From Patescibacteria group bacterium (GTDB lineage: Bacteria > Patescibacteriota > Minisyncoccia > Minisyncoccales > UBA10102), in contig JADFNM010000001.1 in NCBI GenBank assembly GCA_022563395.1, positions 178,830 through 242,829 on the forward strand: a stretch of 64,000 nucleotides of DNA, given 5' to 3'. Made by a program: the position numbers and the translations under genes. Shown here one piece after another: positions 16,222-39,922 of this stretch. The stretch's first letter is position 1. Each line of letters starts with the position of its first letter. Under the pieces are notes generated by a model. It ran no database searches and was not told where the DNA came from. It saw only the letters and a program-made list of their open reading frames with translations.

Positions 16222-16343
16222 CGATGCGGGGTCGCCCGCCTAGACTCGACGTCTAGTCGAGGCTGGTCTAACGGCCTGCCTCGCGAAGACTCGTCTCGAG
16301 ACGAAGCGGATAATCTTCAGCAAGTCGAGGCAAGTAGGACTTA

Positions 16344-16598
16344 ATGAAATATATAGTTTACATCCTTCAAAGTCTGTCAGCTAAAAAAAGTTATGTCGGA
16401 GTAACGGATAACATAGAACGCCGCATCAAAGAGCATAACAGCGGAAAACATTTCTATACGAAAAGGCATACTCCGTGGAAAGTAATTCATACAGAAGAGT
16501 ATTCAAACTTTCAAGAAGCACAGAGGCAGGAAAAGTACTTAAAAACCACATCAGGCAGAAGAATCATGAAGAAAATCTTTGACTCAATCAAAACATAA
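16344..16598 (+). CDS. GIY-YIG nuclease domain protein
   Basis: 84 aa with YIVYILQS...YVGVTDNIERRIKEHN. Directly upstream of tRNA-Gln. Confidence 0.7.
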   Translation: MKYIVYILQSLSAKKSYVGVTDNIERRIKEHNSGKHFYTKRHTPWKVIHTEEYSNFQEAQRQEKYLKTTSGRRIMKKIFDSIKT

Positions 16599-16603
16599 TC
16601 ATT

Positions 16604-16677
16604 GCGGGATCGTCTAACGGTAGGACATGGCCCTTTGGAGGCCAGTATCTAGGTTCGAATCCTAGTCCCGCAGCCAA
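16604..16677 (+). tRNA. tRNA-Gln (anticodon TTG), CCA encoded
   Basis: U1-A72 acceptor pair, anticodon loop CTTTGGA, T-loop GGTTCGAATCC, discriminator G, and CCA. Confidence 0.75.
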
Positions 16678-16787
16678 CGTGTACGAACAGAGTCAAGAAC
16701 TTTCTTGCTCTTATAATTAATAACAAGATACGGGGTATTGAAATGGACTTTTCCCTAGTCTAATGGTATAATAACTTACATAAGATT

Positions 16788-17024
16788 ATGCTGGAAAAAG
16801 AATTAAAATATTTTATTGATAATCAAAAAGAACTCGTAGCTAAATACGAGGGAAGATTTTTAGTGATTAGGGACCAAAAAGTTCAAGGTGTTTATAACAC
16901 AGAAATAGAAGCATACAACGAAGCTAAAAATAAGTTTGAACTAGGAACCTTTTTGATACAGAGAGCTCTTTCTGGTAAAGAAGGCTACACCCAGACTTTT
17001 CATTCTCGTGTAAGCTTTCCTTAG
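16788..17024 (+). CDS. Hypothetical 78-aa protein, translationally coupled to the retropepsin-like gene
   Basis: Its stop is 2 nt before the start of the next ORF. No recognisable motif. Confidence 0.45.
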   Translation: MLEKELKYFIDNQKELVAKYEGRFLVIRDQKVQGVYNTEIEAYNEAKNKFELGTFLIQRALSGKEGYTQTFHSRVSFP

Positions 17025-17026
17025 CC

Positions 17027-17590
17027 ATGCAAGATGCCTTTACTACAAGATATAAAGGACTGACACAAGTATTACACACACAAATAGGTGTGTGTTTGCC
17101 TTATACCAAAGAAGAAATAGAAATTAACAAAATTCAACTCAAAGAATATCTTGCAATCTGGGACACAGGAGCAACTCATTCAGCTATAACCAAGAAAGTT
17201 GCAGATGAGCTTGGATTAAAACCAACAGGTCTGGTTGATGTAAGACATGCTAAGGGATTGTCTAAAACCAATACTTACTATGTTAATATTGAGCTACCAA
17301 GCCATCTAATGATTGGCAATGTACGCGTAACAGAGGTTGAACTTATTCCAGACGCTAATACTTCAGATGACCAGCAACCACAAATTTTGATTGGTATGGA
17401 TATCATTGGTTTAGGTGATTTTGCAGTAACTAACTATAAAGGAAATACTATTCTTACATTTCGCACCCCCTCTATTGAAGAGATAGATTTTGTACCAGAG
17501 GCAAAGGAAGACAATATCATGGAAGGTGGAAATAGCCACGCACGTAAAGTTCAAAGAGCTAAAAAACGTAGAAGAGATAAGAAGAGATAA
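17027..17590 (+). CDS. Retropepsin-like aspartic peptidase (clan AA) with a basic C-terminal tail
   Basis: DTGA active-site motif (AIWDTGATHSAIT), an ILIGMDIIGLG flap-like region, and a KRRRDKKR tail. Confidence 0.6.
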   Translation: MQDAFTTRYKGLTQVLHTQIGVCLPYTKEEIEINKIQLKEYLAIWDTGATHSAITKKVADELGLKPTGLVDVRHAKGLSKTNTYYVNIELPSHLMIGNVRVTEVELIPDANTSDDQQPQILIGMDIIGLGDFAVTNYKGNTILTFRTPSIEEIDFVPEAKEDNIMEGGNSHARKVQRAKKRRRDKKR

Positions 17591-17635
17591 ATTCTTTACT
17601 TTCTAATAAACTTGTACTGTAAAAACAATCAAAGA

Positions 17636-17668
17636 ATCGCCAAATAGGCGGTTTTTTGGTAAGGTAGA
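17636..17668 (+). promoter_or_regulatory. Conserved hairpin-T6-GGTARRRT promoter module (ATCGCCAAATAGGCGGTTTTTTGGTAAGGTAGAGT), 4 nt before the ATG
   Basis: One of at least 9 copies of CGCCnnnnnnGGCGGTTTTTTGGTAGAAT located 5-20 nt upstream of start codons. Confidence 0.6.
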
Positions 17669-17671
17669 GTT

Positions 17672-17860
17672 ATGAGGGGCATTTACAGCATAACAAAGGG
17701 ACAATTGATTACACTATGGTTTTTTGGAACTATTGGTTGGCTTTTCGCTGGTCTCGTTTTGCTTAATGAAATTATCAGTGCCCTCCTGTATATTTTTTTG
17801 ATTCCGTTTATTCTTATTTTCTATACTATTGGTTGGAGAAATAGTAAAAAGAAAAAATAG
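17672..17860 (+). CDS. Small membrane protein (62 aa, 2 TM)
   Basis: Hydrophobic 62-aa ORF immediately downstream of the promoter module. Confidence 0.45.
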   Translation: MRGIYSITKGQLITLWFFGTIGWLFAGLVLLNEIISALLYIFLIPFILIFYTIGWRNSKKKK

Positions 17861-17900
17861 TGAATAGCAGAGTAGGGGAGAAATAATCTATTATCTACCT

Positions 17901-18494
17901 ATGAAGAGGAAAACTAAAAAAAGTACAGAGCTTACTACTAAGGAAGATTTGGGTAGCGACGAGGGATACTTGGAAAGTGAAGCGGTAGTAAAGCCTCCAG
18001 AAAAAGATAGTTTATTAAAGAGAATCCTATCGAGATTAGGCATGGGCGCCTTAGTCGTTGGTGGTGGCGCACTCTTTAGTGTAATTACTATTTTACAATT
18101 TTTAGTTACTGCTATCATTGGTTTAGGAATGATATGGTGGGCAGTAGTCTTATTTTTAGACGGCTCCATTATTTTGGGCCTATTGGTTCTTTTAATCGGG
18201 ACCCCAATAGCTATTGGATTAACCCACTTTTTCTTTTTCTTCTTCCTGGCGATAGGAATCCTTGCAACGATAATATGGGGAGTTGCTAACCTATTTGGTG
18301 TCGGTCTTTCTTTTGGTAATGCCTGGGATATTATTTGGCTGGTTATTGAGGTAGTGCTGCTTGGGGGTATGGCTTTTCTGGGAGTAAGTGGATTGATTGA
18401 AGCGATAAAAGAAAAGAGGGTAGCAGAGTTTTTTAAAGGAAATTGGTTCTATCTTTTACTCTTTGCATTTCTTTTTTGGTTATTTTTTCTCTAA
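17901..18494 (+). CDS. Hypothetical polytopic membrane protein
   Basis: 197 aa with a charged N-terminus followed by about 5 TM helices. Confidence 0.45.
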   Translation: MKRKTKKSTELTTKEDLGSDEGYLESEAVVKPPEKDSLLKRILSRLGMGALVVGGGALFSVITILQFLVTAIIGLGMIWWAVVLFLDGSIILGLLVLLIGTPIAIGLTHFFFFFFLAIGILATIIWGVANLFGVGLSFGNAWDIIWLVIEVVLLGGMAFLGVSGLIEAIKEKRVAEFFKGNWFYLLLFAFLFWLFFL

Positions 18495-18518
18495 GAGAAA
18501 CCAGTAAAACATCATAGT

Positions 18519-18830
18519 ATGGTCAAAAAAATCTATAGAGCAAATAATAGAGATGGCATTCTTATTGTGTTTGAGGATGGAAAACAAGTCGGTTTAACTG
18601 ATATAATGCGTGGTGTCCTACAGAACACATTCCGTACCCAGTTGGAGAATATAAAAATGCACCCTATCCCTCAGGAAGAAGGGGCATTAGAGACGAGACC
18701 TGATGAAGTAACAGAGGTTATACAAAAAGAAACTGGCTATTATTTAGAGGTTTCGGGAGATAAAGGGGATTATGATATTTCCGTTTCTCCTGAGGAGCTT
18801 AAAACTCTAATTTTTCTTGATGATAAATAA
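18519..18830 (+). CDS. Hypothetical protein (103 aa)
   Basis: ORF with plausible coding composition. Paired with the next ORF across a 2-nt gap. Confidence 0.35.
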   Translation: MVKKIYRANNRDGILIVFEDGKQVGLTDIMRGVLQNTFRTQLENIKMHPIPQEEGALETRPDEVTEVIQKETGYYLEVSGDKGDYDISVSPEELKTLIFLDDK

Positions 18831-18832
18831 AT

Positions 18833-19060
18833 ATGTATCTTGATATTGTTCTCGGTTTTTATAATCGTGCTGATGGTGGCTATGCACCGTGGTTTATGAT
18901 TTTTGAGCGTGATGGAGGTAATACCAGGGAGATTCCATTTGATTGCAAAGAGACTGCTCAATCAGAAAAAGAAGCAATACGCATTGCAAAAGCACACGCA
19001 CTAAAGATACTGGAAGAAAGATACTCCTCATCCGTCCAAGTTCGCTTTAGAGAAAAGTAG
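18833..19060 (+). CDS. Hypothetical protein (75 aa)
   Basis: Immediately follows the previous ORF. Acidic small protein. Confidence 0.35.
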   Translation: MYLDIVLGFYNRADGGYAPWFMIFERDGGNTREIPFDCKETAQSEKEAIRIAKAHALKILEERYSSSVQVRFREK

Positions 19061-19112
19061 GGGATTATCGCACAAAACTATATGCAAAGGTGAACTTGCC
19101 ACCCAATAAAAG

Positions 19113-19130
19113 GGTTCTAACTTCGTCCAG
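19113..19130. repeat. GGTTCTAACTTCGTCCAG boundary motif (copy 1; about 34 bp near-identical to the copy at 19815)
   Basis: CAATAAAAGGGTTCTAACTTCGTCCAGTGCCCC at 19100-19135 versus the same sequence with one mismatch at 19802-19840. The two copies flank the P-loop kinase gene as direct repeats. Confidence 0.7.
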
Positions 19131-19218
19131 TGCCCCCGGCTGCTAATTTTAAGCTTAGATTCTAAGCACCCTATCGTGGAGTTAGAACTATGGGTGATTT
19201 TTTGATAAAGTGAACAAT

Positions 19219-19725
19219 ATGAAAAAGAAATTGAGATTCATCTTACTAAACGGGCCAATAGGTTCGGGTAAATCCACTACTGCCAATCTTCTGCAAAGCA
19301 AATTGAAAAGAACTGCTATATTGAGTGTGGAAGACATTAGACAACTTATTTCTGATTTCAAGCACAACAGAGAAGACCATCTCCTTACGTGGAAAATTAT
19401 CCATAGTATGTGTGATGAATATTTCAAAAATGGAATAAGTGTGTTGCTTGAACAGTCCTATTGTTCCAAAGATAATGTTAATCAATTTCTGCGTCTTGCA
19501 AAAAAGCACAAGTGCTCCATAGGTTTCTATCATCTTCAAGCACCAAGAAGTATTTTACTTGAAAGAATTAAGCAACGAAAGAAAGACCATAAGACTTCAA
19601 AAGCTAAAATAATAAGTAATATTAAAAAACACGAAGAAACGACCTACCCAGACGCTATTGTTATTGATACTTCTGAAATGAAACCGGTCGAAGTCGCTAA
19701 GCTTATTTTGAATGATTTAAAGTGA
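19219..19725 (+). CDS. P-loop NTPase/kinase (AAA_33/zeta-toxin-like nucleotide kinase fold); ORF also opens at GTG 19210
   Basis: Walker A LNGPIGSGKST and about 170 aa, kinase-sized. Flanked by direct repeats. Confidence 0.5.
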   Translation: MKKKLRFILLNGPIGSGKSTTANLLQSKLKRTAILSVEDIRQLISDFKHNREDHLLTWKIIHSMCDEYFKNGISVLLEQSYCSKDNVNQFLRLAKKHKCSIGFYHLQAPRSILLERIKQRKKDHKTSKAKIISNIKKHEETTYPDAIVIDTSEMKPVEVAKLILNDLK

Positions 19726-19814
19726 TTGGAGAAATAGTGTAACGTGGGGTGGGGTAATTTGTGTTAAGATGAGCTCAAACTATAGGCAAACCCTGACTTT
19801 CCTTGCAATAAAAG

Positions 19815-19832
19815 GGTTCTAACTTCGTCCAG
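19815..19832. repeat. GGTTCTAACTTCGTCCAG boundary motif (copy 2)
   Basis: Direct repeat of 19113-19130. Followed by the palindrome GCTTAAACGAGATTTAAGC at 19849-19867 and a promoter module. Confidence 0.7.
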
Positions 19833-19883
19833 TACCCCCTGCCATGATTGCTTAAACGAGATTTAAGCAATATGAGAAAAAGA

Positions 19884-19916
19884 ATCGCCATGCAGGCGGT
19901 TTTTTGATAGAGTAGG
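19884..19916 (+). promoter_or_regulatory. Hairpin-T6-promoter module (ATCGCCATGCAGGCGGTTTTTTGATAGAGT)
   Basis: Same module as at 17636. The ATG at 19920 follows 3 nt after GATT. Confidence 0.6.
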
Positions 19917-19919
19917 ATT

Positions 19920-20195
19920 ATGAAAAAGATTCATTTCTTCCTAGACGAATTCCACCACGGGGCTGTGAACCATGTGGTACATTTTACTGGCTTTACGCTC
20001 CTTGGATATGGATTAGGCATAGAGAACTGGTGGATTGTTATCCTCTCTCCTTTTGTCATGGAGATGGGTCATCTTTACAACTACTCTACGGGTAGAGACA
20101 GACACCATGCTATTCGCATCATTCCAATGCAGATAATAGCATGGCTCATCTTTGTAGGAATCGTATACTTACTTACAAGATTGTTTAGTTCATAG
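19920..20195 (+). CDS. Small membrane protein (91 aa)
   Basis: Hydrophobic helices, with His/Glu residues inside predicted helices. Confidence 0.4.
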   Translation: MKKIHFFLDEFHHGAVNHVVHFTGFTLLGYGLGIENWWIVILSPFVMEMGHLYNYSTGRDRHHAIRIIPMQIIAWLIFVGIVYLLTRLFSS

Positions 20196-20238
20196 AAGTT
20201 AAATTTGGAATATAAAACTCATCACTTAGCCTTATCCT

Positions 20239-20269
20239 GGTTCTAACGTCGTTCACGACACGCAGCTAG
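20239..20269. repeat. GGTTCTAACGTCGTTCACGACACGCAGCTAG boundary motif (left flank of the HExxH gene)
   Basis: A 31-bp near-identical direct repeat recurs at 21636-21666, on the other side of ORF 20315-21577. Confidence 0.7.
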
Positions 20270-20314
20270 TTTTAGAGGTTTGACGTGTTTGTGGATGCTT
20301 TGGTAAAATGAAAT

Positions 20315-21577
20315 ATGGAAAATAATTTTTATAGTAAAGGGCAAAGTTTAGTTGGTATAGCTATTATTTCAGTCATTATTAGCTTAATAGTAATAGGTGG
20401 TTTATATTTTTATTTTTCAAAACAAATCCCAGAAGTGTCTAAAATTTCCGAAAAACAAGCCGAAGAAATAATTCAACCAGAAGAGGTTATTCTTCCATCT
20501 GAAGAGTTACCCAAAGAAGAAATTGCTCCAGAGAAGAAAGTTGTAGAAATCTCAATTAAGGCTCCCAAGGAAACGGAGCTAGAAGCCCCCGCACCCCAAT
20601 CACCGCGCAAACCCTTTCCACCAACTGTTAGGATTGAGGCAAATCCAAGCACAGTGCCATCTGGAACACCAGTTACTCTTTCTTGGACTTCTGAAAACGC
20701 AGATTCTTGTATTGCAAAAGACGATTGGTCAGGATCGTTGGAGCTTTCTGGGCAAAGAACAGTTACTCCTCCTAGATCCATATCATACTATCCTGTAGAA
20801 TGCCGGAATCCATTCGGTATCGCATCATATTCTGTAACTATATATGTAGAGTCTATTGCACCTTTACCCTCAGAGGATGCGCCATTAACACCTAAAGAAG
20901 GATTTAGTCTACTTGTTGTCTTCACTTACGAAGATACACCACTAGATTCTCAGATTAAAGAGGACTTATGTACCGGATCTGGCACAAATAAGTTTTCCTA
21001 TCTTCCAAAATGGTTCAAACGTGAAGCAAGCAGATACGGCGTTTCATTCTCAATGACGGTACAATGTCTTGATCAACAAGTTGAACTATCGCAGGATGTT
21101 ATTGAGACAACAAACACCTGTAAGGGTGGTCTCGGAGGTACATTCACTTGTCCATATGACAAAACAAAAGCAAAAAGTTATCTCGAACAAACCATTCCAT
21201 TACTACAGAATTATGATGTTGTGACGATTATGCATTATAAGCCTTATTCTTATGAATTTGGGGCTGATTCAGACGGTTCTGGGGGAAAATATAATTATAT
21301 ATACCTCGCAAAAGGCCCAGTTATCGACGGAGTCCAATATTATAACCCCAATGTAGGAAACGAAGGCAACCATGCTTTTGCTGCTGCACATGAAAGTCTC
21401 CATAATCTAGGAGCATCTGACTACTACTTTCAGGGTTCCGGATACAAATGTTTGATAGAATCTGATCCTACTTTAATTTATAATAGCAGGTATATAATGT
21501 GTGCTGCTGCTAGGGAAGATCCTTTTAGTAGTTATGTAATTTCTCCTGAGACTGCAAAAGAACTTGGATGGAGATAA
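20315..21577 (+). CDS. Membrane-anchored protein with a Pro/Glu-rich linker, an Ig/CARDB-like domain and a C-terminal HExxH (zincin-like) domain
   Basis: N-terminal TM, an EEIAPEKK linker, a PSTVPSGTPVTLSWTSENADSC beta-sandwich-like segment, and AAAHESLHNLGASDYY. Confidence 0.5.
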   Translation: MENNFYSKGQSLVGIAIISVIISLIVIGGLYFYFSKQIPEVSKISEKQAEEIIQPEEVILPSEELPKEEIAPEKKVVEISIKAPKETELEAPAPQSPRKPFPPTVRIEANPSTVPSGTPVTLSWTSENADSCIAKDDWSGSLELSGQRTVTPPRSISYYPVECRNPFGIASYSVTIYVESIAPLPSEDAPLTPKEGFSLLVVFTYEDTPLDSQIKEDLCTGSGTNKFSYLPKWFKREASRYGVSFSMTVQCLDQQVELSQDVIETTNTCKGGLGGTFTCPYDKTKAKSYLEQTIPLLQNYDVVTIMHYKPYSYEFGADSDGSGGKYNYIYLAKGPVIDGVQYYNPNVGNEGNHAFAAAHESLHNLGASDYYFQGSGYKCLIESDPTLIYNSRYIMCAAAREDPFSSYVISPETAKELGWR

Positions 21578-21635
21578 ATTCAAGCTATATTAAGAAGTCG
21601 TATGACGAGAATGTGAGCTCCTCACATACCAAAAG

Positions 21636-21666
21636 GGTTCTAACTTCGTCCACGACACGCAGCTAG
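21636..21666. repeat. GGTTCTAACTTCGTCCACGACACGCAGCTAG boundary motif (right flank)
   Basis: Direct repeat of 20239-20269. Confidence 0.7.
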
Positions 21667-21690
21667 CAGTTCTGAATAGCAAAAATCGCA

Positions 21691-22074
21691 ATGCAAGAAA
21701 ACAAACTAACGATTCAAATTAACAAACCTATTGTAGAGGTTTTTGCTTTTACGACGAATCCGCAAAACACGCCTTTGTGGCTTGACTCAGTAGTTACTGA
21801 ACAAGTGAATGAGTGGCCAGCAAGACAAGGGAGTATTTATAAGAATCAAGATACAGATGGAAACTGGTCAGAGTATGTCGTAAGTGAGTGGAGAGAAAAC
21901 GAAATGTTTGTATGGGACAAAAAGAATAGTAATTACCATGTTAGGTATATCTTTACGCCAGTAGACGAAAATATCACAGAACTTGAATACTATGAATGGG
22001 TAGATACAGGAGAGCTTGATAAACCCTTTACCCAGAAAATACTAGAAAAGCTAAAGCGCGTTTTGGAAAATTAG
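21691..22074 (+). CDS. Hypothetical protein, possibly SRPBCC/START-like fold
   Basis: 127 aa, about the size of a small ligand-binding fold. Weak match only. Confidence 0.3.
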   Translation: MQENKLTIQINKPIVEVFAFTTNPQNTPLWLDSVVTEQVNEWPARQGSIYKNQDTDGNWSEYVVSEWRENEMFVWDKKNSNYHVRYIFTPVDENITELEYYEWVDTGELDKPFTQKILEKLKRVLEN

Positions 22075-22240
22075 TTCTAAATGAGACACGAGATACTACG
22101 CCTATCCAGTGTCTCATTTGTCTCATTTTGTGCTAAAATGACCCCGACCGAGACGGGTAGATGAGACACCCCTAGAAAGCCCCAGAATCCCTCTTAAACC
22201 TCATGTTCCAGACCAAGGGTGCTAAAGCCAAACATAAAAC

Positions 22241-22810
22241 ATGATATCTCACCCATCTATCAAGGCCATCTTTATACCAGGAAATGATGGCGGTACAACG
22301 CAGGACCAGTGGTTTCCGTATGCCAAACGTGAACTTAAAAAGCTTGGTCTTGCAGTAAGGGCAGAAACTTTTCCTGACCCCATTCTTGCAAGGGAACAAT
22401 ACTGGATCCCTTTCTTGAAAGAGCTTGGCGCTGACGAGAAGACCATCCTTATAGGACATTCATCGGGAGCAGTCGCTGCAATGAGATTTGCAGAGCAGAA
22501 CAAAATTCTGGGATCGGTGTTGATTGGGGCCTGCTACACTGACCTTAATGACGAGATGGAAAAGAAAAGCGGGTATTACGACCGCCCCTGGGATTGGGAG
22601 GCAATCAAAGCGAATCAAGAGTGGATTATCCAATATGCCTCTATTGACGATCCATACATTCCTGTTGAGGAAGCTCGGCATATCCATACACAACTTGGTA
22701 CAGAATATTACGAGTATAAAGACCAGGGACACTTTGGAGAACCCACAAGGCCTAAACCAGAGTTTCCAGAGATGATAGAGGCAATCAGAAAAAAGCTATC
22801 CCAGGACTAA
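22241..22810 (+). CDS. Alpha/beta hydrolase, RBBP9/YdeN-like serine hydrolase
   Basis: 189 aa with nucleophile-elbow GHSSG (ILIGHSSGAVAA) and downstream Asp/His residues. Confidence 0.6.
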   Translation: MISHPSIKAIFIPGNDGGTTQDQWFPYAKRELKKLGLAVRAETFPDPILAREQYWIPFLKELGADEKTILIGHSSGAVAAMRFAEQNKILGSVLIGACYTDLNDEMEKKSGYYDRPWDWEAIKANQEWIIQYASIDDPYIPVEEARHIHTQLGTEYYEYKDQGHFGEPTRPKPEFPEMIEAIRKKLSQD

Positions 22811-22920
22811 GATTCTCTGCACCAGCATTCACGCAACGGGACATTCGTCTCTGAGAGACTCAGTCTCGATGAGTTCTAACATCGTCCAAGCCCCGCAGCA
22901 TACTAATACAAGAAGCCAAT

Positions 22921-22990
22921 GGTTCCTAAATGAAATTAAGGATTCTTTAATTTCATTTAGGAGATATGCGCTCTAAATAAGGGGGACAAA
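22921..22990. repeat. Type-B palindromic element (GGTTCCTAAATGAAATTAAGGA...TTAATTTCATTTAGGAGATATGCGCTCTAAATAAGGGGGACAAA)
   Basis: Family recurs at 9545, 31388, 33579, 39471 and 44907. The 30 bp upstream (CTAATACAAGAAGCCAATGGTTCC) also matches the copy at 44888. Confidence 0.8.
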
Positions 22991-23108
22991 ACTTGTGTAA
23001 ATCGGATGTGCACAACAAGGATTTTGAGAATATCATTAACTTTTTAGGCAAATGATTTATAATAAAGATGATAGATAAAAATGAACAGGATGATAACAAC
23101 TTAGAAAA

Positions 23109-24422
23109 ATGAGAGCAAAAATCCCCTTTATCTTCATTGTTGTTTCCCTTATGTTTGTCAGCATGTTTGTCGGCGCTTTTTTAGTCGGAGAGGTTAAGGC
23201 GCAGACAAAAGATTCCCAAGAGCTGTCAAAGGTTTTAGTGATTGACATTGAAGGAGAGATTCGCGCCGGCACGGTTCAGTTTGTAAAGCGCGCTTTGACA
23301 AAGGCCCAAGCTGGCGACTTTGAACTTTTTCTTATTCAACTGAACACCCCAGGTGGGCTCTTAAAGGCCACCGAAGAGATCAGCCGGCTTTTGCTGGACA
23401 GCAAAATACAAACCGCCGTGTTTGTTCATAAAAACGGCGGCTGGGCATTTTCGGCCGGCACTTTTATTCTTCTGTCTGCAGAAATTGCAGTTAGCCATCC
23501 CAATGCCTCAATTGGTGCGGCTCAGCCGCGCGCTTTGGGTATTGGGGAAGTCGCGGAGCCTGATGAAAAAATTATTAAAGCCTCAAGCATTTGGATGAAA
23601 TCATTAGCTGAAGCTCGCGGACGAAACCTCGAGGTCGCGGAAAAATTCGTCCTGGAAAATCTAACATTAAGCGGTAAAGAGGCACACGAACAAAATATTA
23701 TTAATTTCACCGCCGTATCTTTGGATGAACTTCTCAACAAGCTTAAATTTAAAGACGCCGCCATAGAAGAAGTAACGCCAAATCTCTTAGAGCAAATCCT
23801 GTCTTTTCTTTCCATTTCTTTTCTAATTCCGCTTTTACTTGGCATTGGGTCTTTAGGGTTGTTCTTTGTATTTCGCACAGGCGAGGTGGAAATTGGAATT
23901 TTCGCTATCGCTGCTCTTCTTTTAGGACTGTGGGGAATGGGGGCTATCAATCTTTCGGTGCTGGGAGCAACGCTTTTGTTCTTTGGTATTGCTCTTATTA
24001 TTCTTGAAATTTTTGTGATGCCCGGATTTGGTGTTTTTGGCATAGCTGGAACCATCGCCTTTCTTTTTGGGATACTCACCTTTGCCCAAGAGCCGTTCTT
24101 ACCAAGCGTTTTTACCAATGCAGCTTTTTGGTTTGTGATGGGGGTGACGTTGGCTGTTTCTGTGTTTTTCATTGTTCTTGGCAGATTGTCGCTTAAAACC
24201 CTAAGGGTAAAGGCCAGGGCTGGTCCGGAGGCTCTCACGGGAGAAACAGCTGTTGTAACCGAAACACTGCATCCCTACGGCAAGGTAAAGATTAACCGTG
24301 AGGACTGGGTGGCAAAAAATATTTCAGATAAAGAAGTTATTGAAGTGGGAGAGAAGGTAAGGGTTGTAAATATCCAGGGAAATACTATAATAGTAAAAGG
24401 GTCGAAAACTAGCATGCTGTAA
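23109..24422 (+). CDS. NfeD-family membrane-bound serine protease (ClpP-class)
   Basis: Signal/TM segment, ClpP-like domain LNTPGG...GWAFSAGTFILLSAE, TM segments, and a C-terminal OB-like beta domain. Confidence 0.75.
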   Translation: MRAKIPFIFIVVSLMFVSMFVGAFLVGEVKAQTKDSQELSKVLVIDIEGEIRAGTVQFVKRALTKAQAGDFELFLIQLNTPGGLLKATEEISRLLLDSKIQTAVFVHKNGGWAFSAGTFILLSAEIAVSHPNASIGAAQPRALGIGEVAEPDEKIIKASSIWMKSLAEARGRNLEVAEKFVLENLTLSGKEAHEQNIINFTAVSLDELLNKLKFKDAAIEEVTPNLLEQILSFLSISFLIPLLLGIGSLGLFFVFRTGEVEIGIFAIAALLLGLWGMGAINLSVLGATLLFFGIALIILEIFVMPGFGVFGIAGTIAFLFGILTFAQEPFLPSVFTNAAFWFVMGVTLAVSVFFIVLGRLSLKTLRVKARAGPEALTGETAVVTETLHPYGKVKINREDWVAKNISDKEVIEVGEKVRVVNIQGNTIIVKGSKTSML

Positions 24423-24437
24423 AAACTTGTAAATATT

Positions 24438-25205
24438 ATGGAATTTTTGTTTAATTTATTTTTCTCAACTGGAGGAATTATTGTTATCGTCGCCATCATT
24501 CTTTTCTCAGCTGTAAAGATTGTCAGGGAATATGAGCGGGCAGTTATTTTTCGCTTGGGACGCTTGGTGGGCACGCGTGGACCCGGTCTTTTTCTGCTTA
24601 TCCCAATGATTGAAAAAATGGTCAAGCTTGATCTTCGGATTATTACCCTTGATGTGCCGGCCCAAGAGGTTATCACCCGCGACAACATACCCATAACGGT
24701 TGACGCGGTGCTGTATTTTAAGGTTTCTGACCCTATTCGTGCAGTGGTTGAGGTTGAAAACTTTCTGAAAGCAACTTCGCAAATCGCCCAGACATCGCTT
24801 AGGGGAGTTGCCGGCGAGGCGGCTTTTGACGAGATTCTGGCCGAGCGTGAGAAGATTAACACCAAGCTTCACAAAATTATTGACATTGCCACGGACCCTT
24901 GGGGAATTAAAGTCTCGGCGGTGGAAATAAAGCACGTTGAGGTGCCAGAAGCCATGCAGCGGGCAATTGCCAAACAGGCGGAAGCTGAGCGGACAAGACG
25001 GGCAAAAGTAATTTTGGCCGAGGGAGAATTTCAGGCGGCTCAAAAACTAAAGGATGCCGGTGAAATTCTCGGCGCCAACCCAATTGTGTTTCGCTATCTT
25101 GAAACCATAGCAGAAGCGGCTAAAGAAAAAAGCAATACCATCATCTTCCCGGCCGAGATGCTTGACTTGGTCAAAAAAATCTCCCGAAAATCGGACATGC
25201 AGTGA
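24438..25205 (+). CDS. SPFH/band-7 protein (stomatin-like), cognate partner of NfeD
   Basis: N-terminal TM, band-7 core (VPAQEVITRDNIPITVDAVLYFKV), and a coiled-coil C-terminus. Classic nfeD-stomatin operon. Confidence 0.8.
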   Translation: MEFLFNLFFSTGGIIVIVAIILFSAVKIVREYERAVIFRLGRLVGTRGPGLFLLIPMIEKMVKLDLRIITLDVPAQEVITRDNIPITVDAVLYFKVSDPIRAVVEVENFLKATSQIAQTSLRGVAGEAAFDEILAEREKINTKLHKIIDIATDPWGIKVSAVEIKHVEVPEAMQRAIAKQAEAERTRRAKVILAEGEFQAAQKLKDAGEILGANPIVFRYLETIAEAAKEKSNTIIFPAEMLDLVKKISRKSDMQ

Positions 25206-25457
25206 AAAACCACTTGAAAAATTAAGTGGCAGAGAAAAATAGAACTTGCTGGTCCTCTTTAGAGACACTACCCCTATCTAGTGTTTCATTTGTCTCATTC
25301 TGCCTTATTTCTTCTTGGTTGAAAGTGCCCCGTCCCCGTCAGAATTAGTTTCTTTAGTAGCCCCAATTTCCCCTTAAAATTCCGAGGGGATAAGGTGCAA
25401 GACTCGCCTAGAGAGCATTAGTGCTTAAACGAGATTTAAGCAAACTCATAATCTAAT

Positions 25458-26033: not shown

Positions 26034-26087
26034 ACAGCCTGCAGGGTCGTGCAGGTAAGTTGCATATACGTTAAGGTGAAGTAACAT

Positions 26088-26816: not shown

Positions 26817-26845
26817 CTTATAACTAATAACTCATCACAAACACT

Positions 26846-27058
26846 ATGAAATGGTCACCAATTTTACACGGAGTTGCCGCAGTTTCCGGAGTCGTTGGCT
26901 TTTTGGTCTTAGTCATGTGGTGGATAGTTCTTTTGAGGGAAGGCGCATCGCCTTTTTCGGCAGAACATTTGTATGACGACGCAATAGCTTTACTTTTGCT
27001 CTCAATCGCGTTTGGCATAGGCACTCTTATCCACCAAAAACAGGAGCGACAGCAATAA
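26846..27058 (+). CDS. Small membrane protein (70 aa)
   Basis: Two hydrophobic helices. Confidence 0.35.
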   Translation: MKWSPILHGVAAVSGVVGFLVLVMWWIVLLREGASPFSAEHLYDDAIALLLLSIAFGIGTLIHQKQERQQ

Positions 27059-27064
27059 TACCGT

Positions 27065-36526: not shown

Positions 36527-37738
36527 ATGTTTTCCTTGCTGAAGAATAAAAAGATTTTAGCTTGGACTTTCTATGATTTTGCCGATACTGCCCTGGCAGC
36601 TCTTTTCTTTACCTTTTTCTGGCCCTTGCTTATCAAAGAACATTTGGGAGGAAATGAATTCCAGATTGGCCTTGTTATGGGTCTTTCGCTTCTTTTCGTA
36701 GCGCTCTTTGTGCCTTTGATAGGAGCAATATCTGACGCCACTGGCAGACGCATGCCAATTCTTATTATATCTACTTTGCTGACCGCTATTTTTGCAGTTC
36801 TTACCGGATACATGGGTTTAGTTGGAGCTTTAATTCTGGGGTTTCTGGTACGGTTTTTGTTCACCGTTGATATTGATCTCTACGACGCTAAACTGGTTGA
36901 TATTGTTGCGCGTTCCAAAATCGGCTTTGTATCCGGCCTGGGAGTTGCCATTGGATATCTTGGCACAATAGTTGGCCTGGCCGTAGCCTATCCATTGCTG
37001 GAGTATTTTGGCTGGGACACGTTGCTTGGCATTCAAGTGATTTTTATTGAAGGGGCGCTCTTTCTGCTTATTTTCTCTCTTCCTCTTTTCTTGTTGGTTA
37101 AAGATAAACCCCTCAAAGAAAAAATACCCTTTCTGTCTGCTTTTCGCAAAGGTCTTAAAGCACTGAAGTTTACCATTACCAACCTTAAACAATTCCCGGC
37201 CTTTGGCAGGTTCCTGCTTGCTTCTTTTATCTACAACGATGCGGTAAATACCACGCTTATATTTTTAGTGCTGTATGCCACAAGCGTTATTGGCCTTCAA
37301 ATCAAGGAGTTTTTCTTTGTTTTTGTCCTTATGGCTTTGGGAGCTGGAGTTGGAGCACTCATATTTGGGTATCTTTCAGGCAGCTTTAGTCCCAAACGAG
37401 CCCTAATCATTGCTCTTGGAATGTGGATTTTTGTCATTGTTTATCTCCTTTTAATCAAAACCTTTGCCAGCATACTTATTGCCGGAATTATAGGAGGGGC
37501 GGCACTTGGAGGCATCTGGACCGCGAATCGGCATATGGTAGTTCTAATCTCGCCATATCGGAAAATAGCTGAGTTTTTTGGCATTGAAGGGTTAACCGAA
37601 CGCCTCTCCGGGGTCTTGGGACCTATTATTTTTGGCGCAATTGTTGTCACGATTGGATACCAAGTTGCTCTTTTCTTTATCCTCTTTTTGTTCATTGCAG
37701 GCCTTGCTCTTCTTTTGAGAGTGCCGCTAAAAACTTGA
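36527..37738 (+). CDS. MFS-type transporter
   Basis: 12 predicted TM helices, a GAISDATGRR loop motif, and duplicated 6-TM halves. Confidence 0.6.
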   Translation: MFSLLKNKKILAWTFYDFADTALAALFFTFFWPLLIKEHLGGNEFQIGLVMGLSLLFVALFVPLIGAISDATGRRMPILIISTLLTAIFAVLTGYMGLVGALILGFLVRFLFTVDIDLYDAKLVDIVARSKIGFVSGLGVAIGYLGTIVGLAVAYPLLEYFGWDTLLGIQVIFIEGALFLLIFSLPLFLLVKDKPLKEKIPFLSAFRKGLKALKFTITNLKQFPAFGRFLLASFIYNDAVNTTLIFLVLYATSVIGLQIKEFFFVFVLMALGAGVGALIFGYLSGSFSPKRALIIALGMWIFVIVYLLLIKTFASILIAGIIGGAALGGIWTANRHMVVLISPYRKIAEFFGIEGLTERLSGVLGPIIFGAIVVTIGYQVALFFILFLFIAGLALLLRVPLKT

Positions 37739-37860
37739 TTAAATTAAAATGGACATATCTCAATTTGTATCTCTTTTCCATCGTGTTGAGAAAAGATATT
37801 GGCAATTGTTCCCATGAGAGCTATACTATTGGTATGCGCTACAGCGTGAAGGGAACAAAT

Positions 37861-38286
37861 ATGGAACTCACTCCGGAGGTCTCCACGTATATTGAGGAGA
37901 AGATAGGAAGCTTGGATAGGTTTATTAAGCATGTGGATTCTGCAGTGCAAGGATGGGTAGAAGTTGGGCGCATTGGCAAGCATCATCAAACAGGAAAGGT
38001 CTGGAGAGCAGAAGTTCAAATTCATCTGCCAGGCAGGTCAATGAGATCGGAAGCTGTGGCCAAAACCATTTTCCTGGCTATCAATGAAGTGAAAGACAAA
38101 TTGCAACGGGAACTCAAACAATATAAAAGGAAACAAGCCACTAAACAGAAAAAGGGGGCTCGCAGCTTTAAACCGCCTTTCCCTTTGAGAAAACCTCCCC
38201 GTCTCAAGGGAAAGGTTCAGAATGTTGGGATTAAACCAATTCGCAAGAAACCTCGTACTCATATGCCACCAGAAGCCCCTAAATAA
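37861..38286 (+). CDS. hpf: Ribosome hibernation promoting factor / RaiA family (ORF opens at 37735)
   Basis: MELTPEVSTYIEEKIGSLDRF...VEVGRIGKHHQTGKVWRAEVQIHLPG. Basic C-terminal extension. Confidence 0.7.
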   Translation: MELTPEVSTYIEEKIGSLDRFIKHVDSAVQGWVEVGRIGKHHQTGKVWRAEVQIHLPGRSMRSEAVAKTIFLAINEVKDKLQRELKQYKRKQATKQKKGARSFKPPFPLRKPPRLKGKVQNVGIKPIRKKPRTHMPPEAPK

Positions 38287-38317
38287 GGGGCTTTTTGGTT
38301 GCATGGGGAGTGGAGTT

Positions 38318-38348
38318 CAAACTTTTGTTGGTTTTTTGGTAGAATGAG
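38318..38348 (+). promoter_or_regulatory. T6-GGTAGAAT promoter module 3 nt before the ATG at 38352
   Basis: GTTGGTTTTTTGGTAGAATGAGAATATG. Confidence 0.5.
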
Positions 38349-38351
38349 AAT

Positions 38352-38705
38352 ATGAATCCAATAGCATTCGCAGTTCTAGCAGCACCAGCTTTTGGTTTGT
38401 GGACCGTATTCCATAAGCTCGCCGCTCCGTATATCAACCAAGTGTTTGGAGCAATTCTTGTGTCGTTCACTGCTGTCATCTTAGGCAGTATTGTTCTGCT
38501 GCCTAGGATAAAAGACGTCCAACTCTTTAGTGACCCGAAAGGAATAATCTTCCTTGTTCTTGCAGGACTAATGGCCTTTGGAATTGATTTCTTTGCACTT
38601 CAGGCATATTCAAAGGGATTACCTCTCACTGTCGGTGGACCTATCATTATCGGAGGAAGTATCGCCGTCGCCGTTAGTATTGGCTTTGTATTAGGAATTT
38701 TTTAA
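38352..38705 (+). CDS. Small 4-TM membrane protein
   Basis: 117 aa, entirely hydrophobic helices. Confidence 0.4.
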   Translation: MNPIAFAVLAAPAFGLWTVFHKLAAPYINQVFGAILVSFTAVILGSIVLLPRIKDVQLFSDPKGIIFLVLAGLMAFGIDFFALQAYSKGLPLTVGGPIIIGGSIAVAVSIGFVLGIF

Positions 38706-38767
38706 AATATCTGCTAGACTATTAATATTCAAGGTCGGCTAATACTTCATTTACTAATATTTATTCC

Positions 38768-38998
38768 ATGAAAAAAACTACATGCAAGACTATGGGTGGC
38801 GTTTGTGACGAGGAGATCCGTGGGGAAACTGCTGAAGAATTGATGGCCAACGGTAAGCAGCACCTTCATGATGCGGCTGAGACCGGCGACGAAGATCACA
38901 AAGGTGTCATTCAAAAAATGGAACAGATGAGCGAAGAAGATCGCAAAAAGTGGGCTGGAGAACTTACGAATAACTTTGATGCACTGGAAGAGGCTTAA
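38768..38998 (+). CDS. DUF1059-like small metal-binding protein
   Basis: 76 aa with MKKTTCKTMGGVCDEE...HLHDAAETGDEDH, a Cys/His pattern typical of DUF1059. Confidence 0.4.
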   Translation: MKKTTCKTMGGVCDEEIRGETAEELMANGKQHLHDAAETGDEDHKGVIQKMEQMSEEDRKKWAGELTNNFDALEEA

Positions 38999-39108
38999 AG
39001 TTAGATCCCGATAGGTAGGAGGGTGTGATCTCTTATTATACTAACCAATCAATCGCCAAACAGGCGGTTTTTTGGTAGAGTAAGGATGGCGAATTTCAGA
39101 GGAGAGAA

Positions 39109-39339
39109 GTGAACGACAAGCACCCAAGAACAGGGGAGAGGCATATGTATATGTACTGGATGCTCAGGATAGCACCCGTAGTGACGATTCTCGTTGTTAT
39201 CAACCTCCTTGTGTGGCGGTTCACCGAATTTAAGGTGATCTTCGGCCCCGGGCTCTCTGGGGTTCTCCTGATTGCCTCTGTGGGTCTGTGGTTTATTGCC
39301 CTCTATGCTTCACGAAATGCTCGATATCGAGCAAGATGA
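39109..39339 (+). CDS. Small 2-TM membrane protein (ORF opens at GTG; an internal ATG at about 39145 is likely)
   Basis: Hydrophobic ORF downstream of the promoter module at 39046-39080. Confidence 0.3.
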   Translation: MNDKHPRTGERHMYMYWMLRIAPVVTILVVINLLVWRFTEFKVIFGPGLSGVLLIASVGLWFIALYASRNARYRAR

Positions 39340-39402
39340 GGGTTCATACCATGATAGGGCGGTGAGATGATATCAATACCCGCTTTTCTTTTACACAAAA
39401 CA

Positions 39403-39420
39403 GGTTCTAACATCGTCCCA
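39403..39420. repeat. GGTTCTAACATCGTCCCA boundary motif copy
   Basis: Matches the consensus GGTTCTAAC[AT]TCGTCC. Followed by palindromic elements. Confidence 0.6.
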
Positions 39421-39440
39421 TAGGGAGAGCCATTGTTGCT

Positions 39441-39545
39441 TAAACGAGATTTAAGCAATATCCATTGAAGTTAATGGTTCCTTAATTTCATTTAGGAGAT
39501 AATCACTAGAATCAATCATGCTTAAACGAGATTTAAGCAGCATGG
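39441..39545. repeat. Composite of three palindromic elements (type A, type B, type A)
   Basis: GCTTAAACGAGATTTAAGC ... GGTTCCTTAATTTCATTTAGGAGATAATC ... GCTTAAACGAGATTTAAGC. Confidence 0.8.
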
Positions 39546-39552
39546 GGAAAAA

Positions 39553-39588
39553 GAATCGCCAGTACGGCGATTTTTTGGTAGAATCAAA
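39553..39588 (+). promoter_or_regulatory. Hairpin-T6-GGTAGAAT promoter module before acpS
   Basis: ATCGCCAGTACGGCGATTTTTTGGTAGAATCAAAT, then ATG. Confidence 0.6.
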
Positions 39589-39589
39589 T

Positions 39590-39922
39590 ATGATTATGAA
39601 ACTCGGGACTGATATCGTACATATTCCAAGATTTGAAAAGACATTGAGAGAAAGTCGGGAATACTTTGAACAGAATGTGTTCTGCCCCGAAGAATGGGCA
39701 GATTCATCAATAGAGAAATTAGCTGGAAGATTTGCAGCAAAGGAAGCAACACTCAAGGCCTTGGGTATTAAAGCTGGCCGCTGGCAAGAAATTTGCGTCA
39801 AAAATTCAGAAGATGGAAAACCGTTCCTTGCTTCCTTCCTAATGCAGAAAAAATGGAAACATGAACTTTCCATTTCTCACGACGGTGAATACGCAATTGC
39901 TGTCGTAGTATTCTATCGGTGA
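39590..39922 (+). CDS. acpS: Holo-[acyl-carrier-protein] synthase (ORF opens at 39518 inside the repeat)
   Basis: MIMKLGTDIVHIPRF...FAAKEATLKALG...ISHDGEYAIAVVV, the 4'-phosphopantetheinyl transferase signature. Confidence 0.8.
   Translation: MIMKLGTDIVHIPRFEKTLRESREYFEQNVFCPEEWADSSIEKLAGRFAAKEATLKALGIKAGRWQEICVKNSEDGKPFLASFLMQKKWKHELSISHDGEYAIAVVVFYR

Follow-up and report, generated by a model that had tools for sequence, protein, structure and literature searches.

Described systems and the present locus

Staphylococcal cassette chromosome (SCC) elements, including SCCmec, are inserted at the 3′ end of rlmH by the large serine recombinases (LSRs) CcrAB or CcrC. The gene is left intact, the site is regenerated, elements stack in tandem, and pseudo-SCC units need a recombinase in trans. 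Archaeal integrases of the SSV1 type (Fuselloviridae) are encoded by a gene that contains attP; when the element integrates into a tRNA gene, its integrase gene is split into two flanking pieces, and excision makes that gene whole again. Here we describe a stretch of 64,000 nucleotides, the window, from a Patescibacteria group bacterium (UBA10102; assembly GCA_022563395.1, contig JADFNM010000001.1, positions 178,830 to 242,829), in which the 9-mer GGTTCTAAC recurs behind genes of an island that begins at a tRNA-Gln gene. The motif very probably belongs to the detached 3′-end stub of an LSR gene. We suggest, with a probability of roughly three in four, that the window holds a composite island formed by serial LSR-mediated integration at a regenerated tRNA-Gln end, the recombinase genes having later been lost.

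Under the proposed mechanism, the recombinase genes of a Patescibacteria-wide LSR family would read across their own attP. The crossover would lie about 25-30 codons before the LSR stop codon, in a segment whose complement mimics the 3′ half of a tRNA through the T-loop-like 9-mer, an acceptor-like tail and CCA (a Trp codon on the LSR strand). On integration into attB, the real 3′ end of tRNA-Gln, tRNA-Asn or tRNA-Glu, the LSR body would stay beside the tRNA with a substitute tail read from the tRNA antisense strand, and the native last 25-30 codons (..LDEVRTLLLQGKSAFSYSFA, stop) would be moved to the far end of the island, where they form the stub. Because the tRNA end is regenerated, further elements could enter and a tandem array could form, the newest element probably lying nearest the tRNA. 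LSR bodies would then decay or be deleted, and cargo genes and short stubs would persist.

By analogy, SCC is the closest system in working principle, with an LSR, a conserved gene 3′ end, tandem stacking, recombinase-less units and accessory cargo. It differs in that the target here is a tRNA gene and not rlmH, the host is a bacterium of the candidate phyla radiation (CPR) and no ccr genes are present. Moreover, the recombinase gene here would span attP and be split by integration, and the scar would be a coding stub, not a short direct repeat. A recombinase gene split by its own attP is a feature of the SSV1 type, to which the family is likened here without being assigned. Unlike SSV1, the recombinase is a serine and not a tyrosine enzyme, only the last 25-30 codons are detached (a large part in SSV1), and the remainder stays open into the tRNA antisense strand. 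In mycobacteriophages with integration-dependent immunity, attP lies inside the repressor gene and integration by a tyrosine integrase alters the C-terminus of the product. The present family would likewise carry attP in a gene of the element and change its C-terminus, the differences being the gene (a repressor there) and the type of integrase. That the LSR tail swap has a regulatory role, as this analogy might imply, is pure conjecture. Integrons and clusters of attC sites lacking integron-integrases (CALINs) also present an ordered, co-oriented array of mostly small accessory genes, each with a recombination-related repeat, and the core words found here resemble their R″ and R′ boxes. The locus differs from them in lacking IntI and regular attC hairpins, and probably also a common Pc promoter; its repeat is a gene fragment, its junctions lie elsewhere, and it includes large multigene blocks.

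Conservation and coding nature of the element

Seven exact copies of GGTTCTAAC were found in the window, at 19113, 19815, 20239, 21636, 31315, 32356 and 39403, all on the plus strand; 0.40 were expected and no shuffled sequence reached seven. A search with the 16-mer GGTTCTAACTTCGTCC, permitting up to three mismatches, detected an additional near copy at 22872. The repeat reported in the initial annotation is thus real. Each copy lies 11-90 nt past the stop codon of a plus-strand gene. No copy was found outside 19.1-39.4 kb, either in the remaining window or in about 20 kb of flanking DNA from the same genome.

The 18-mer GGGTTCTAACTTCGTCCA was recovered from 23 species-representative genomes, 20 of which were Patescibacteria of distant classes (Saccharibacteria, Yanofsky-, Sungii-, Zambryskii- and Jorgensenbacteria, Paceibacterota), and from 69 metagenome stretches; the window's own copies of this core carry variants. 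Loci beyond the window are cited below by L numbers. Conservation reached about 55 nt upstream of the core, in three subtypes. The core is followed by a short variable tail resembling the 3′ strand of a tRNA acceptor stem with its discriminator, often with CCA. Many loci have a tRNA gene on the same strand, upstream of the element (tRNA-Gln or tRNA-Asn for types 1 and 2, tRNA-Glu for type 3), and the tails match the tRNA type. Many contigs stop at this element or close to it.

On the minus strand the element reads as the last part of an open frame (..LDEVRTLLLQGKSAFSYSFA, stop), where the motif's complement, GTT AGA ACC, codes for V-R-T and that of CCA for W. This frame, with its stop 19-30 codons past V-R-T, was present in about 70 unique elements elsewhere and in the window copies at 19113, 19815 and 21636. 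Subtypes differing in DNA keep the peptide, which reads ..W-L-G-V-L-D-E-V-R-T-L-L-L-Q-G-K-S-A-F-S-Y-S-F-A-x-stop in type 1, ..LDEVRTLLLEGQSEFYYRCPAFA..stop in type 2 and ..RGLDEVRTHLMQLTGYSPFAIVRSW-stop in type 3. Differences among 42 unique stubs of types 1 and 2 numbered 2911, 2430 and 5014 at codon positions 1, 2 and 3, respectively. The conserved element is protein-coding on the opposite strand and is under coding constraint. Type-2 stubs were always immediately preceded by a gene for a conserved 111-aa protein.

Recombinase genes and their division by integration

Open reading frames (ORFs) with Resolvase, Recombinase and Zn_ribbon_recom domains adjoin the element or a tRNA gene, on the opposite strand and with the 3′ end always facing the tRNA or the stub. 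LSR genes of this kind were found at L091, L058, L083 and L073, and fragments in L052, L027/L072, L076 and L119. In L058, L073 and L052 the LSR frame runs into the stub in frame. The attP site thus lies inside the LSR ORF and the gene is partitioned by integration, as in split integrases. Three contigs carried both ends of an island (here and below, a slash within a sequence marks the junction):

L091: tRNA-Asn, 12.5 kb, type I restriction-modification cargo, rejoined frame ..ARSPVM/LRVLDEVRTLLLQGKSSFSYSFAL, stop
L119: tRNA-Gln, 2.9 kb
L027: tRNA-Gln, 3.2 kb, cargo including a reverse transcriptase

Virtual excision rejoined the LSR in frame in all three cases (..ARSPVM/L.VLDEVRTLLLQGKS.FSYSF.., stop), and in L091 and L027 it also restored ..AGC/CA at the tRNA. 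The junction ..AGC/ATTACTGGA.. follows tRNA-Asn, tRNA-Gln and a stub. Since an identical P′ sequence (ATTACTGGAC..) follows these three left contexts, the crossover would be at the tRNA 3′ end, probably to within about 3 nt. A crossover at the near-palindrome GGTT-CT-AACC was considered and rejected, as the identical P′ begins right past ..AGC in all three contexts and the copies diverge beyond the tail. An apparent junction at GGTTCTAAC in L031 was due to a deletion that starts in the LSR 3′ region and reaches into the 111-aa gene, and not to a site-specific event.

The L058 LSR has thousands of database homologues, the best 120 of which are 67-100% identical to it and belong to Patescibacteria where named. 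These 120 align up to ..LVAERSEA..L.FP.W and then diverge. Tails of the (D/E)SN(P/S/L) type, which correspond to the translated reverse complement of a tRNA T-arm (GAA TCG AAC CC = E S N P), were present in 74 of them, and the native tail ..LLDE(V/I)RT(F/H)F.. in eight. Because 74 of the 120 carry antisense-tRNA tails, most deposited LSR genes of the family are likely to be in the integrated state beside a tRNA. The chimeric C-termini (..W/T.RESNP..) of most deposited LSR proteins of the family are either an annotation artefact or a genuine alternative tail. In IMG/VR, the 16-mer had three matches, probably due to chance, and the LSR had only four distant matches, all at contig ends. The cargo of LSR islands elsewhere (L091, L013, L016, L024, L028, L044, L052, L057, L083 and L027) was mostly related to defence and DNA handling, with type I HsdR/HsdM, type III Res helicases, Dcm, reverse transcriptase and NUDIX genes.

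Geometry of the attachment sites

In L091 and L027, the distance from start to junction is 23 nt for GGTTCGAAT of the tRNA and 28 nt for GGTTCTAAC of the stub. The same offset of 5 bp was found in the window, where the stubs at 20239, 21636 and 22872 end in ..CGCAGC at 28 nt and the tRNA-Gln ends in ..CGCAGC at 23 nt (..TCCCGCAGC/CA, taking the tRNA end as the centre of attB). For a serine integrase, the 9-bp zinc-ribbon-domain motif was shown to be 5 bp nearer the centre in attB than in attP (Rutherford et al. 2013, PMC3783163). The stub thus resembles a P half-site in which the B half-site of the tRNA is imitated with the diagnostic 5 bp inserted, and this mimicry is the source of the tRNA-like word in the initial annotation. 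The serine integrase of Listeria phage A118/LI appears comparable, its outer 9-bp motif being 5 bp closer to the crossover in attB (PMC3783163); unlike in A118/LI, the attB here would be a tRNA. In 2020 the use of a tRNA as attB by large serine integrases was described as "not been reported previously" and was predicted in 14 of 297 cases (PMC7192596).

The proposal that the motif copies are tRNA-derived att remnants was partly right. The array is tRNA-anchored, the motif marks former recombination junctions, and the element resembles the 3′ half of a tRNA. However, the element is the end of an LSR gene, and its likeness to tRNA is mimicry inside attP rather than a displaced tRNA fragment, with the one exception of a 17-nt repeat at 30986-31002. 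The attL and attR sites have only ..(C)GGAGC or ..AGC in common, and, apart from the 17-nt repeat at 30986, no long direct repeats were present at the island ends. In the L091 type, GTCCAG-N14-CTGGAC forms an inner dyad and the outer P′ is weakly symmetric. Immediately after the window tRNA-Gln (16677-16700, CAACGTGTACGAACAGAG), an inverted T-loop-like TACGAAC lies about 5 nt nearer the tRNA end than in the post-stub LSR 3′ region of L083 and L091. This flank could be a B′-type half-site, with the window tRNA presenting an intact attB, a weak suggestion drawn from the spacing.

Organisation of the island

The window holds at least eight stubs, of which two are intact, one is partly conserved and five are degenerate. 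The anchor, stubs, trailers and borders are as follows:

16603..16676, plus strand: tRNA-Gln(UUG), island anchor and predicted attB, 3′ end ..GGTTCGAATCCTAGTCCCGCAGC/CA (ARAGORN, Rfam)
16677..44940, no strand: hypervariable island, tRNA-Gln to pcm, 28.3 kb (synteny of both flanks)
19065..19142, minus strand: stub 1, intact LSR C-terminal frame QPGALDEVRTLLLGGKFTFAYSFVR, stop; motif 19113-19121 encodes V-R-T (frame translation)
19144..19211, plus strand: trailer after stub 1, with inverted core GTGGA-GTTAGAAC (19176-19188), T-run and promoter-like GATAAAGT (families D16 and D17)
19764..19845, minus strand: stub 2, intact frame ..WQGVLDEVRTLLLQGKSGFAYSLSSS, stop (frame translation)
20185..20266, minus strand: stub 3, degenerate (LRVVNDVRTRIRLSDEF..), tail CACGACACGCAGC ending 28 nt from GGTTC
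21585..21663, minus strand: stub 4, partly conserved (LRVVDEVRTLLVCEELTFSSYDFLI, stop), tail end ..CGCAGC
22860..22899, minus strand: stub 5, truncated (..MLRGLDDVRTHRD, stop), tail CCCCGCAGC mimicking the tRNA-Gln end
30986..31002, plus strand: exact 17-nt repeat of the tRNA-Gln 3′ end (AATCCTAGTCCCGCAGC); 2 matches against 0.06 expected
31003..31074, plus strand: trailer 2, with inverted core GTGGA-GTTAGAAC (31039-31051) in a terminator-like hairpin, then T6 and GGTAGAAT
31279..31342, minus strand: stub 6, degenerate (..WLCLLNEVRTCSVDLLLLKTF, stop; frame translation)
32323..32385, minus strand: stub 7, degenerate (..QVWKNVRTSVISMGTVYL, stop; frame translation)
39391..39430, minus strand: stub 8, truncated (..WLSLWDDVRTCFV, stop; frame translation)
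44941-45546: pcm (PCMT), right border

These marks divide the island into the following units and blocks, each given after the mark in which it ends:

stub 1: DUF5678, retropepsin-like protein and four small ORFs (16.7-19.14 kb)
stub 2: Zeta/AAA_33 kinase
stub 3: 91-aa ORF
stub 4: HExxH membrane protein of 420 aa
stub 5: SRPBCC protein and serine hydrolase
17-nt tRNA-Gln repeat: block at 22.9-31.0 kb with NfeD/SPFH, a copper module and a 320-aa protein
stub 6: DUF2007
stub 7: 285-aa protein
stub 8: block at 32.4-39.4 kb
no stub: block at 39.4-44.9 kb

The boundaries first given for the region, 16.3-39.6 kb, were not retained, as the variable region extends from 16677 to about 44940. Since its right border is pcm at 44.9 kb, the island also takes in a phosphopantetheinyl transferase, an AMP-binding/acyl carrier protein/acyltransferase gene, a glycoside hydrolase and a glycosyltransferase family 4 gene. 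An array of single-gene cassettes throughout was likewise not found, because most of 23-31 kb and 32.5-39.3 kb consists of multigene blocks.

An inverted copy of the core, (T)GGAC-GTTAGAAC(C) and 3 nt shorter, lies 45-52 nt after tRNA-Glu in L012, L048, L058 and L069 and after tRNA-Gln in L118. In addition, it follows stubs (trailer after stub 1; L032, twice in L037, L088) and the 17-nt tRNA repeat (trailer 2), usually with a T-run next to it. It is too far from the crossover to be a P′ or B′ half-site. It may serve as an accessory site, belong to a terminator or form the left end of cassettes without a recombinase. Apart from this inverted core, the trailers had no homologues outside their own lineage.

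A GIY-YIG gene (16344-16598) lies between dnaX and the tRNA-Gln, and before the gene there is a degenerate 5′ part of tRNA-Gln, TGCGGGGTCG, 31 nt and GTCTAACGG (16225-16598). The same layout, with a cleaner pseudo-5′ half, was found in L119 (11135-11435), and both features were absent from L118 and L082. Judging from this arrangement, it looks like a GIY-YIG cassette that was inserted into the tRNA gene and duplicated its 5′ half.

The locus in relatives and within the species

The left flank (P-type ATPase, Na/Ca exchanger, RmuC, L21, RecR, DnaB, CysRS, dnaX and tRNA-Gln) and the right flank (pcm, FKBP, (SIMPL), efp, fmt, LigT and Mur ligase) were conserved among the window, L118 and L119. 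An orthologous tRNA-Gln follows dnaX in L118, L119 and L082. The interval from the end of dnaX to pcm was 28.7 kb in the window, 3.8 kb in L118 and 5 kb in L119, and its content differed.

In L118 (DnaX 85% identical) it held a trailer, a 76-aa gene, a stub, two genes and a hydrolase 86% identical to that at window 34589-35455. In L119 (DnaX 82% identical) it held the C-terminal half of an LSR, a 159-aa gene, a stub, a helicase and a 117-aa gene. The L119 LSR half abuts the tRNA-Gln directly and is 71% identical to the LSR of L091, and the stub lies 2.9 kb further on. This arrangement would show LSR loss in progress at the same tRNA-Gln site. In L026/L082 (dnaX 74% identical in nucleotides) two elements were found, with other small genes between them, followed by GIY-YIG and obg. 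Stub 1 was 90-92% identical to the L026/L082 element adjoining the orthologous tRNA-Gln, and stub 4 was 89% identical to the second element.

The interval between dnaX/tRNA-Gln and pcm is a hypervariable hot spot of gene flux. The initial annotation was correct in recognising an accessory region, whose size and content are wholly different in relatives, and its suggestion of recombination-driven accretion is broadly right apart from the integron analogy. Of the cassette gain, loss and shuffling that it predicted, hypervariability was found across relatives and no shuffling was found among six samples of the species.

In several assemblies of this species the contigs are interrupted at about 16.55, 18.65-19.1, 21.9-22.3 and 39.47 kb, at or near the tRNA-Gln and the stubs; two other assemblies' contigs end about 40 nt past stub 8, as judged from contig matches. 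The coverage of the broken pieces was similar where contig names give coverage. The break positions suggest strain-level branch points beyond short-read resolution.

Alternative explanations

Several findings weigh against a composite LSR-built island. No LSR gene or recognisable LSR fragment was detected in the window by tblastn, which would require eight independent LSR losses that spared the cargo. The five units at 19.1-22.9 kb are just 0.4-1.4 kb long, far below the LSR-bearing islands elsewhere, and the sequence right after the window tRNA-Gln is unlike the post-tRNA LSR 3′ region of L119, L091 and L027. The exact 17-nt tRNA repeat at 30986 is not predicted by an LSR crossover. Contigs of the same species from six samples were colinear over about 16.55-39.47 kb, with no shuffling and no sign of current activity. 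Related loci were gathered by exact match to the 18-mer, so that the invariance of the core is partly due to ascertainment. Finally, the whole model was built from sequence.

A tRNA 3′-end direct repeat is the textbook signature of tyrosine-integrase islands. The principle of tRNA-end repeats at such islands is described in PMC7192596. The block at 16675-30985 could accordingly be one classical tRNA-targeting island, with a tyrosine integrase and a crossover in the T-loop, or the remnant of a truncated second tRNA-Gln, the stubs having been imported inside it. The repeat at 30986 runs exactly from T-loop to acceptor end, GC content is lower at 16-22 kb (38%, against 44-46% elsewhere), and to the right of the repeat the layout is colinear with L118 from its tRNA-Gln on (tRNA-Gln, trailer, small gene, stub and, later, the orthologous hydrolase). 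However, no tyrosine recombinase was found in the window, the nearest Xer-like gene lying 2.4 kb past its end, and relatives offer no second example. The repeat also abuts the stop codon of the gene at 30020-30982, and a deletion would fit equally well. The repeat is either a displaced ancestral tRNA end or a truncated second tRNA copy, and the single-block explanation is possible but on balance doubtful. The Xer-like gene (L108, 11696-12646) encodes an XerC/D-like tyrosine recombinase of 316 aa, the sole Y-recombinase in about 104 kb of the genome, and is probably a housekeeping gene. Tandem islands of the Islander/TIGER type (PMC7192596) resemble the present one in targeting and regenerating a tRNA 3′ end, in forming tandem arrays and in the decay of their integrases. 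They differ in recombinase family and in the far-end mark, which here is a tRNA mimic with a 5-bp insertion and coding sequence, except for the 17-nt repeat.

The small units could also be LSR-less cassettes, each consisting of cargo with an attP-like end and mobilised in trans by an LSR encoded elsewhere, which would make a functionally integron-like or pseudo-SCC-like system anchored on tRNA genes. This would be compatible with serial LSR integration and an addition to it. Single-gene units without LSR debris lie between stubs at 19.1-22.9 and 31.0-32.4 kb. The order tRNA, trailer of about 50 nt ending in (T)GGAC-GTTAGAACC, one variable gene and stub was found in L012, L048, L058 and L069 (tRNA-Glu) and L118 (tRNA-Gln), with different cargo in each. 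Three sites of this kind lie in a 2.5-kb stretch of L037, about a dozen loci carry at least two core copies within 8 kb, and the frames still intact in the stubs at 19113 and 19815 point to recent events or to selection. However, the trailers are unlike the P′ side of LSR-bearing elements, so that no complete attP could be recognised in the small units. No cassette was seen in two different contexts, and the six samples of the species were invariant. Loss of the LSR from ordinary islands by deletion would produce the same picture, and in L119 the LSR is half-deleted in place. Mobilisation in trans is unlikely.

A structured RNA, such as a tRNA-like 3′ UTR, a processing signal or an RNA-level terminator, is very improbable. 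The T-loop-like sequence and acceptor-like tail are consistent with it, as is the orientation, which is always that of the upstream gene. A long hairpin followed by a T-run can form where the inverted core is present, and terminator-like sites were enriched in the region (35 against 18.5 +/- 4.7). However, three subtypes preserve the peptide rather than a fold, substitutions are codon-periodic on the opposite strand, and no consistent covariation between tail and upstream sequence was seen in an alignment read by eye. With Rfam 15, only the two tRNAs in the window reached the gathering threshold, and the element gave no match in 12 loci at the permissive threshold (E<=1).

Other candidates for the element were rejected. 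Against a tRNA origin of the motif, the T-loop of the window tRNA-Gln matches it at only seven of nine positions, no T-arm is possible, and ARAGORN reported no tRNA or tmRNA at the element in the window or related loci. For tmRNA, signal recognition particle RNA, RNase P and group II intron domain V, compared by eye with consensus sequences, Rfam found nothing, and in types 2 and 3 the AGC..GUU pairs cannot form. A small plus-strand ORF (MKKPIFLAGEGF, stop) is broken or startless in many copies, including that at window 19113. Long-range pairing between tail and 5′ flank (GGGG..GCAC/GTGC..CCCC, as in 19113 and L026) was not general and is explained by the coding constraint on the opposite strand.

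An integron or CALIN, with attC sites bounded by R″ (RYYYAAC) and R′ (GTTRRRY) boxes and an IntI integrase, has next to no chance of being correct. In its favour, GGTTCTAAC and GTTAGAACC match the R″/R′ consensus, there may be a superficial likeness to the attC of aadA7, and in a minority of sites the boxes are separated by 75-80 nt and accompanied by another paired block (GTCCA/TGGAC) and a bulge of 3 nt. However, a Pfam scan of 52 ORFs at 15.1-49.7 kb found no Phage_integrase, and the HxLRH / LLGH..Y signature was absent from 486 ORFs in the 490 kb surrounding about 80 related elements. Moreover, an inverted partner was present at only two of nine window junctions and about 6-8 of 63 unique elements, the homology between copies breaks at the end of the tRNA-like tail and not at G/TT, and the conserved 75-90 nt are coding on the other strand.

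Cargo, palindromes and promoter modules

Pfam confirmed a retropepsin-like protein, NfeD with SPFH, a second SPFH protein, a cupredoxin, a DUF192-beta-propeller protein, three alpha/beta hydrolases, an MFS transporter and HPF among the island products, about half of which have hydrophobic N-termini. All of these except HPF had been named in the initial annotation. The zinc proteases, CcdA and pilin-like protein that it also listed had no Pfam confirmation, and a single HExxH was found, in the 420-aa protein.

A copper-handling module at 25458-29874 comprises a DUF3105-like protein, a two-domain cupredoxin, a 70-aa membrane protein, the DUF192-beta-propeller fusion and two membrane proteins. 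Homologues of the propeller in L106 and L107 lie among multicopper oxidase, DsbD, VKOR, YHS, CopA and CsoR genes. Cassette mobility of the DUF192-propeller gene, considered through these homologues, was rejected, as they point to a copper module.

The order gene, motif, palindrome, hairpin-T6, promoter and gene, originally described from five places, was complete in three (19815-19920, 31316-31488 and 39403-39590). The hairpin-T6 was absent at 22873-23109 and 32357-32461, and the motif copies at 19113, 20239 and 21636 had no palindrome. A search with the palindrome CTTAAACGAGATTTAAG, permitting up to three mismatches, gave 18 matches, 11 of which lay outside 16.3-39.6 kb (at 10.6, 11.2, 14.0, 47.8, 51.4 and 57.4 kb). 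Because of these 11, the palindromes are better regarded as genome-wide repeats resembling repetitive extragenic palindromic (REP) sequences than as parts of the units. They have the properties of that class, being short intergenic palindromes, often in inverted pairs between convergent or consecutive genes. The REP-like family CCTAAATCTCGTTTAGG / GCTTAAACGAGATTTAAGC is intergenic throughout the window:

CCTAAATCTCGTTTAGG / GCTTAAACGAGATTTAAGC palindromes: 10575-10633, 11233-11308, 14028-14057, 19849-19869, 25416-25454, 29938-29963, 31340-31434, 39431-39540, 47765-47835, 51429-51499, 57435-57505
second palindrome type, GGTTCCTTAATGAAATTAAGGA..: 9540, 22918, 31385, 33576, 39466, 44904

As a promoter, the word GGTAGAAT taken alone was not significant (5 matches against 1.6 expected). 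The longer module TCGCC-N5-GGCGGTTTTTTGRTA was present in 6-7 copies, within the window only at 17.6-39.6 kb. In its 45-nt form (AAAGAATCGCC-N5-GGCGGTTTTTTGGTAGART, likewise 6-7 copies at 17.6-39.6 kb) it has a further copy elsewhere in this genome but is absent from other genomes, and the module is thus species-specific. Its sequence resembles that of an intrinsic terminator with an extended -10 promoter behind it. The built-in promoters of the initial annotation were therefore supported in this longer form: many units appear to have their own hairpin-T6-extended -10 module or a TTGACA-17-TATAAT promoter. The copies of the module, all on the plus strand, were:

17631..17675, plus strand: hairpin-T6-extended -10 module (AAAGAATCGCC-N5-GGCGGTTTTTTGGTAAGGT), terminator and promoter (repeat family D3)
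19879..19923, plus strand: hairpin-T6-extended -10 module (repeat family)
29968..30012, plus strand: hairpin-T6-extended -10 module (repeat family)
31445..31489, plus strand: hairpin-T6-extended -10 module (repeat family, terminator scan)
39047..39091, plus strand: hairpin-T6-extended -10 module (repeat family)
39550..39594, plus strand: hairpin-T6-extended -10 module (repeat family)

Significance and further observations

A limited literature search, which is not proof of absence, found no description of the motif, of CPR integrons, or of tRNA-targeting LSRs, tRNA mimicry or such arrays in CPR bacteria. Serial LSR integration would account for a hypervariable locus in the reduced genomes of CPR bacteria, where routes of gene gain are poorly known. 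A ..LDEVRT.. stub downstream of tRNA-Gln, tRNA-Asn or tRNA-Glu could serve as a simple marker with which to delimit islands and understand breaks in metagenome contigs. The targeting of tRNA is visible in the protein sequences of a single LSR family with thousands of database members. An attP that is a tRNA mimic inside the recombinase ORF would also give the Van Duyne model (Rutherford et al. 2013) a compact example from nature. The family is a predicted source of candidate integrases whose landing pads would be highly conserved tRNA ends. As regards annotation, many deposited LSR proteins of the family would be chimeric with spurious C-termini, and the stubs go unannotated.

A more far-reaching combination of these readings is quite unlikely to hold in full. 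It would comprise a very large Patescibacteria serine-integrase family with a tRNA-3′-end attB, an in-frame antisense tRNA-mimic attP that swaps the C-terminal 25-30 residues, and recombinase-less stub-ended cassettes mobilised in trans. If true, the tail swap could be a built-in switch between an integrating and a resident form of the recombinase, and tRNA-anchored arrays would work like integrons on serine-recombinase chemistry, with the window as the largest among the loci examined.

Outside the island, the stretch at 3676-3757, after a tRNA-Glu gene (3555-3628), was 75-85% identical to stretches of L058, L070 and L079 beside type-3 stubs or LSR genes. Because of this resemblance, the window tRNA-Glu may be a second attachment region, now empty or decayed. 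The ORF at 51736-52215 consists of GC-rich tandem repeats of about 39 nt, with 11 copies of a 31-nt core, and probably encodes a repetitive low-complexity protein.

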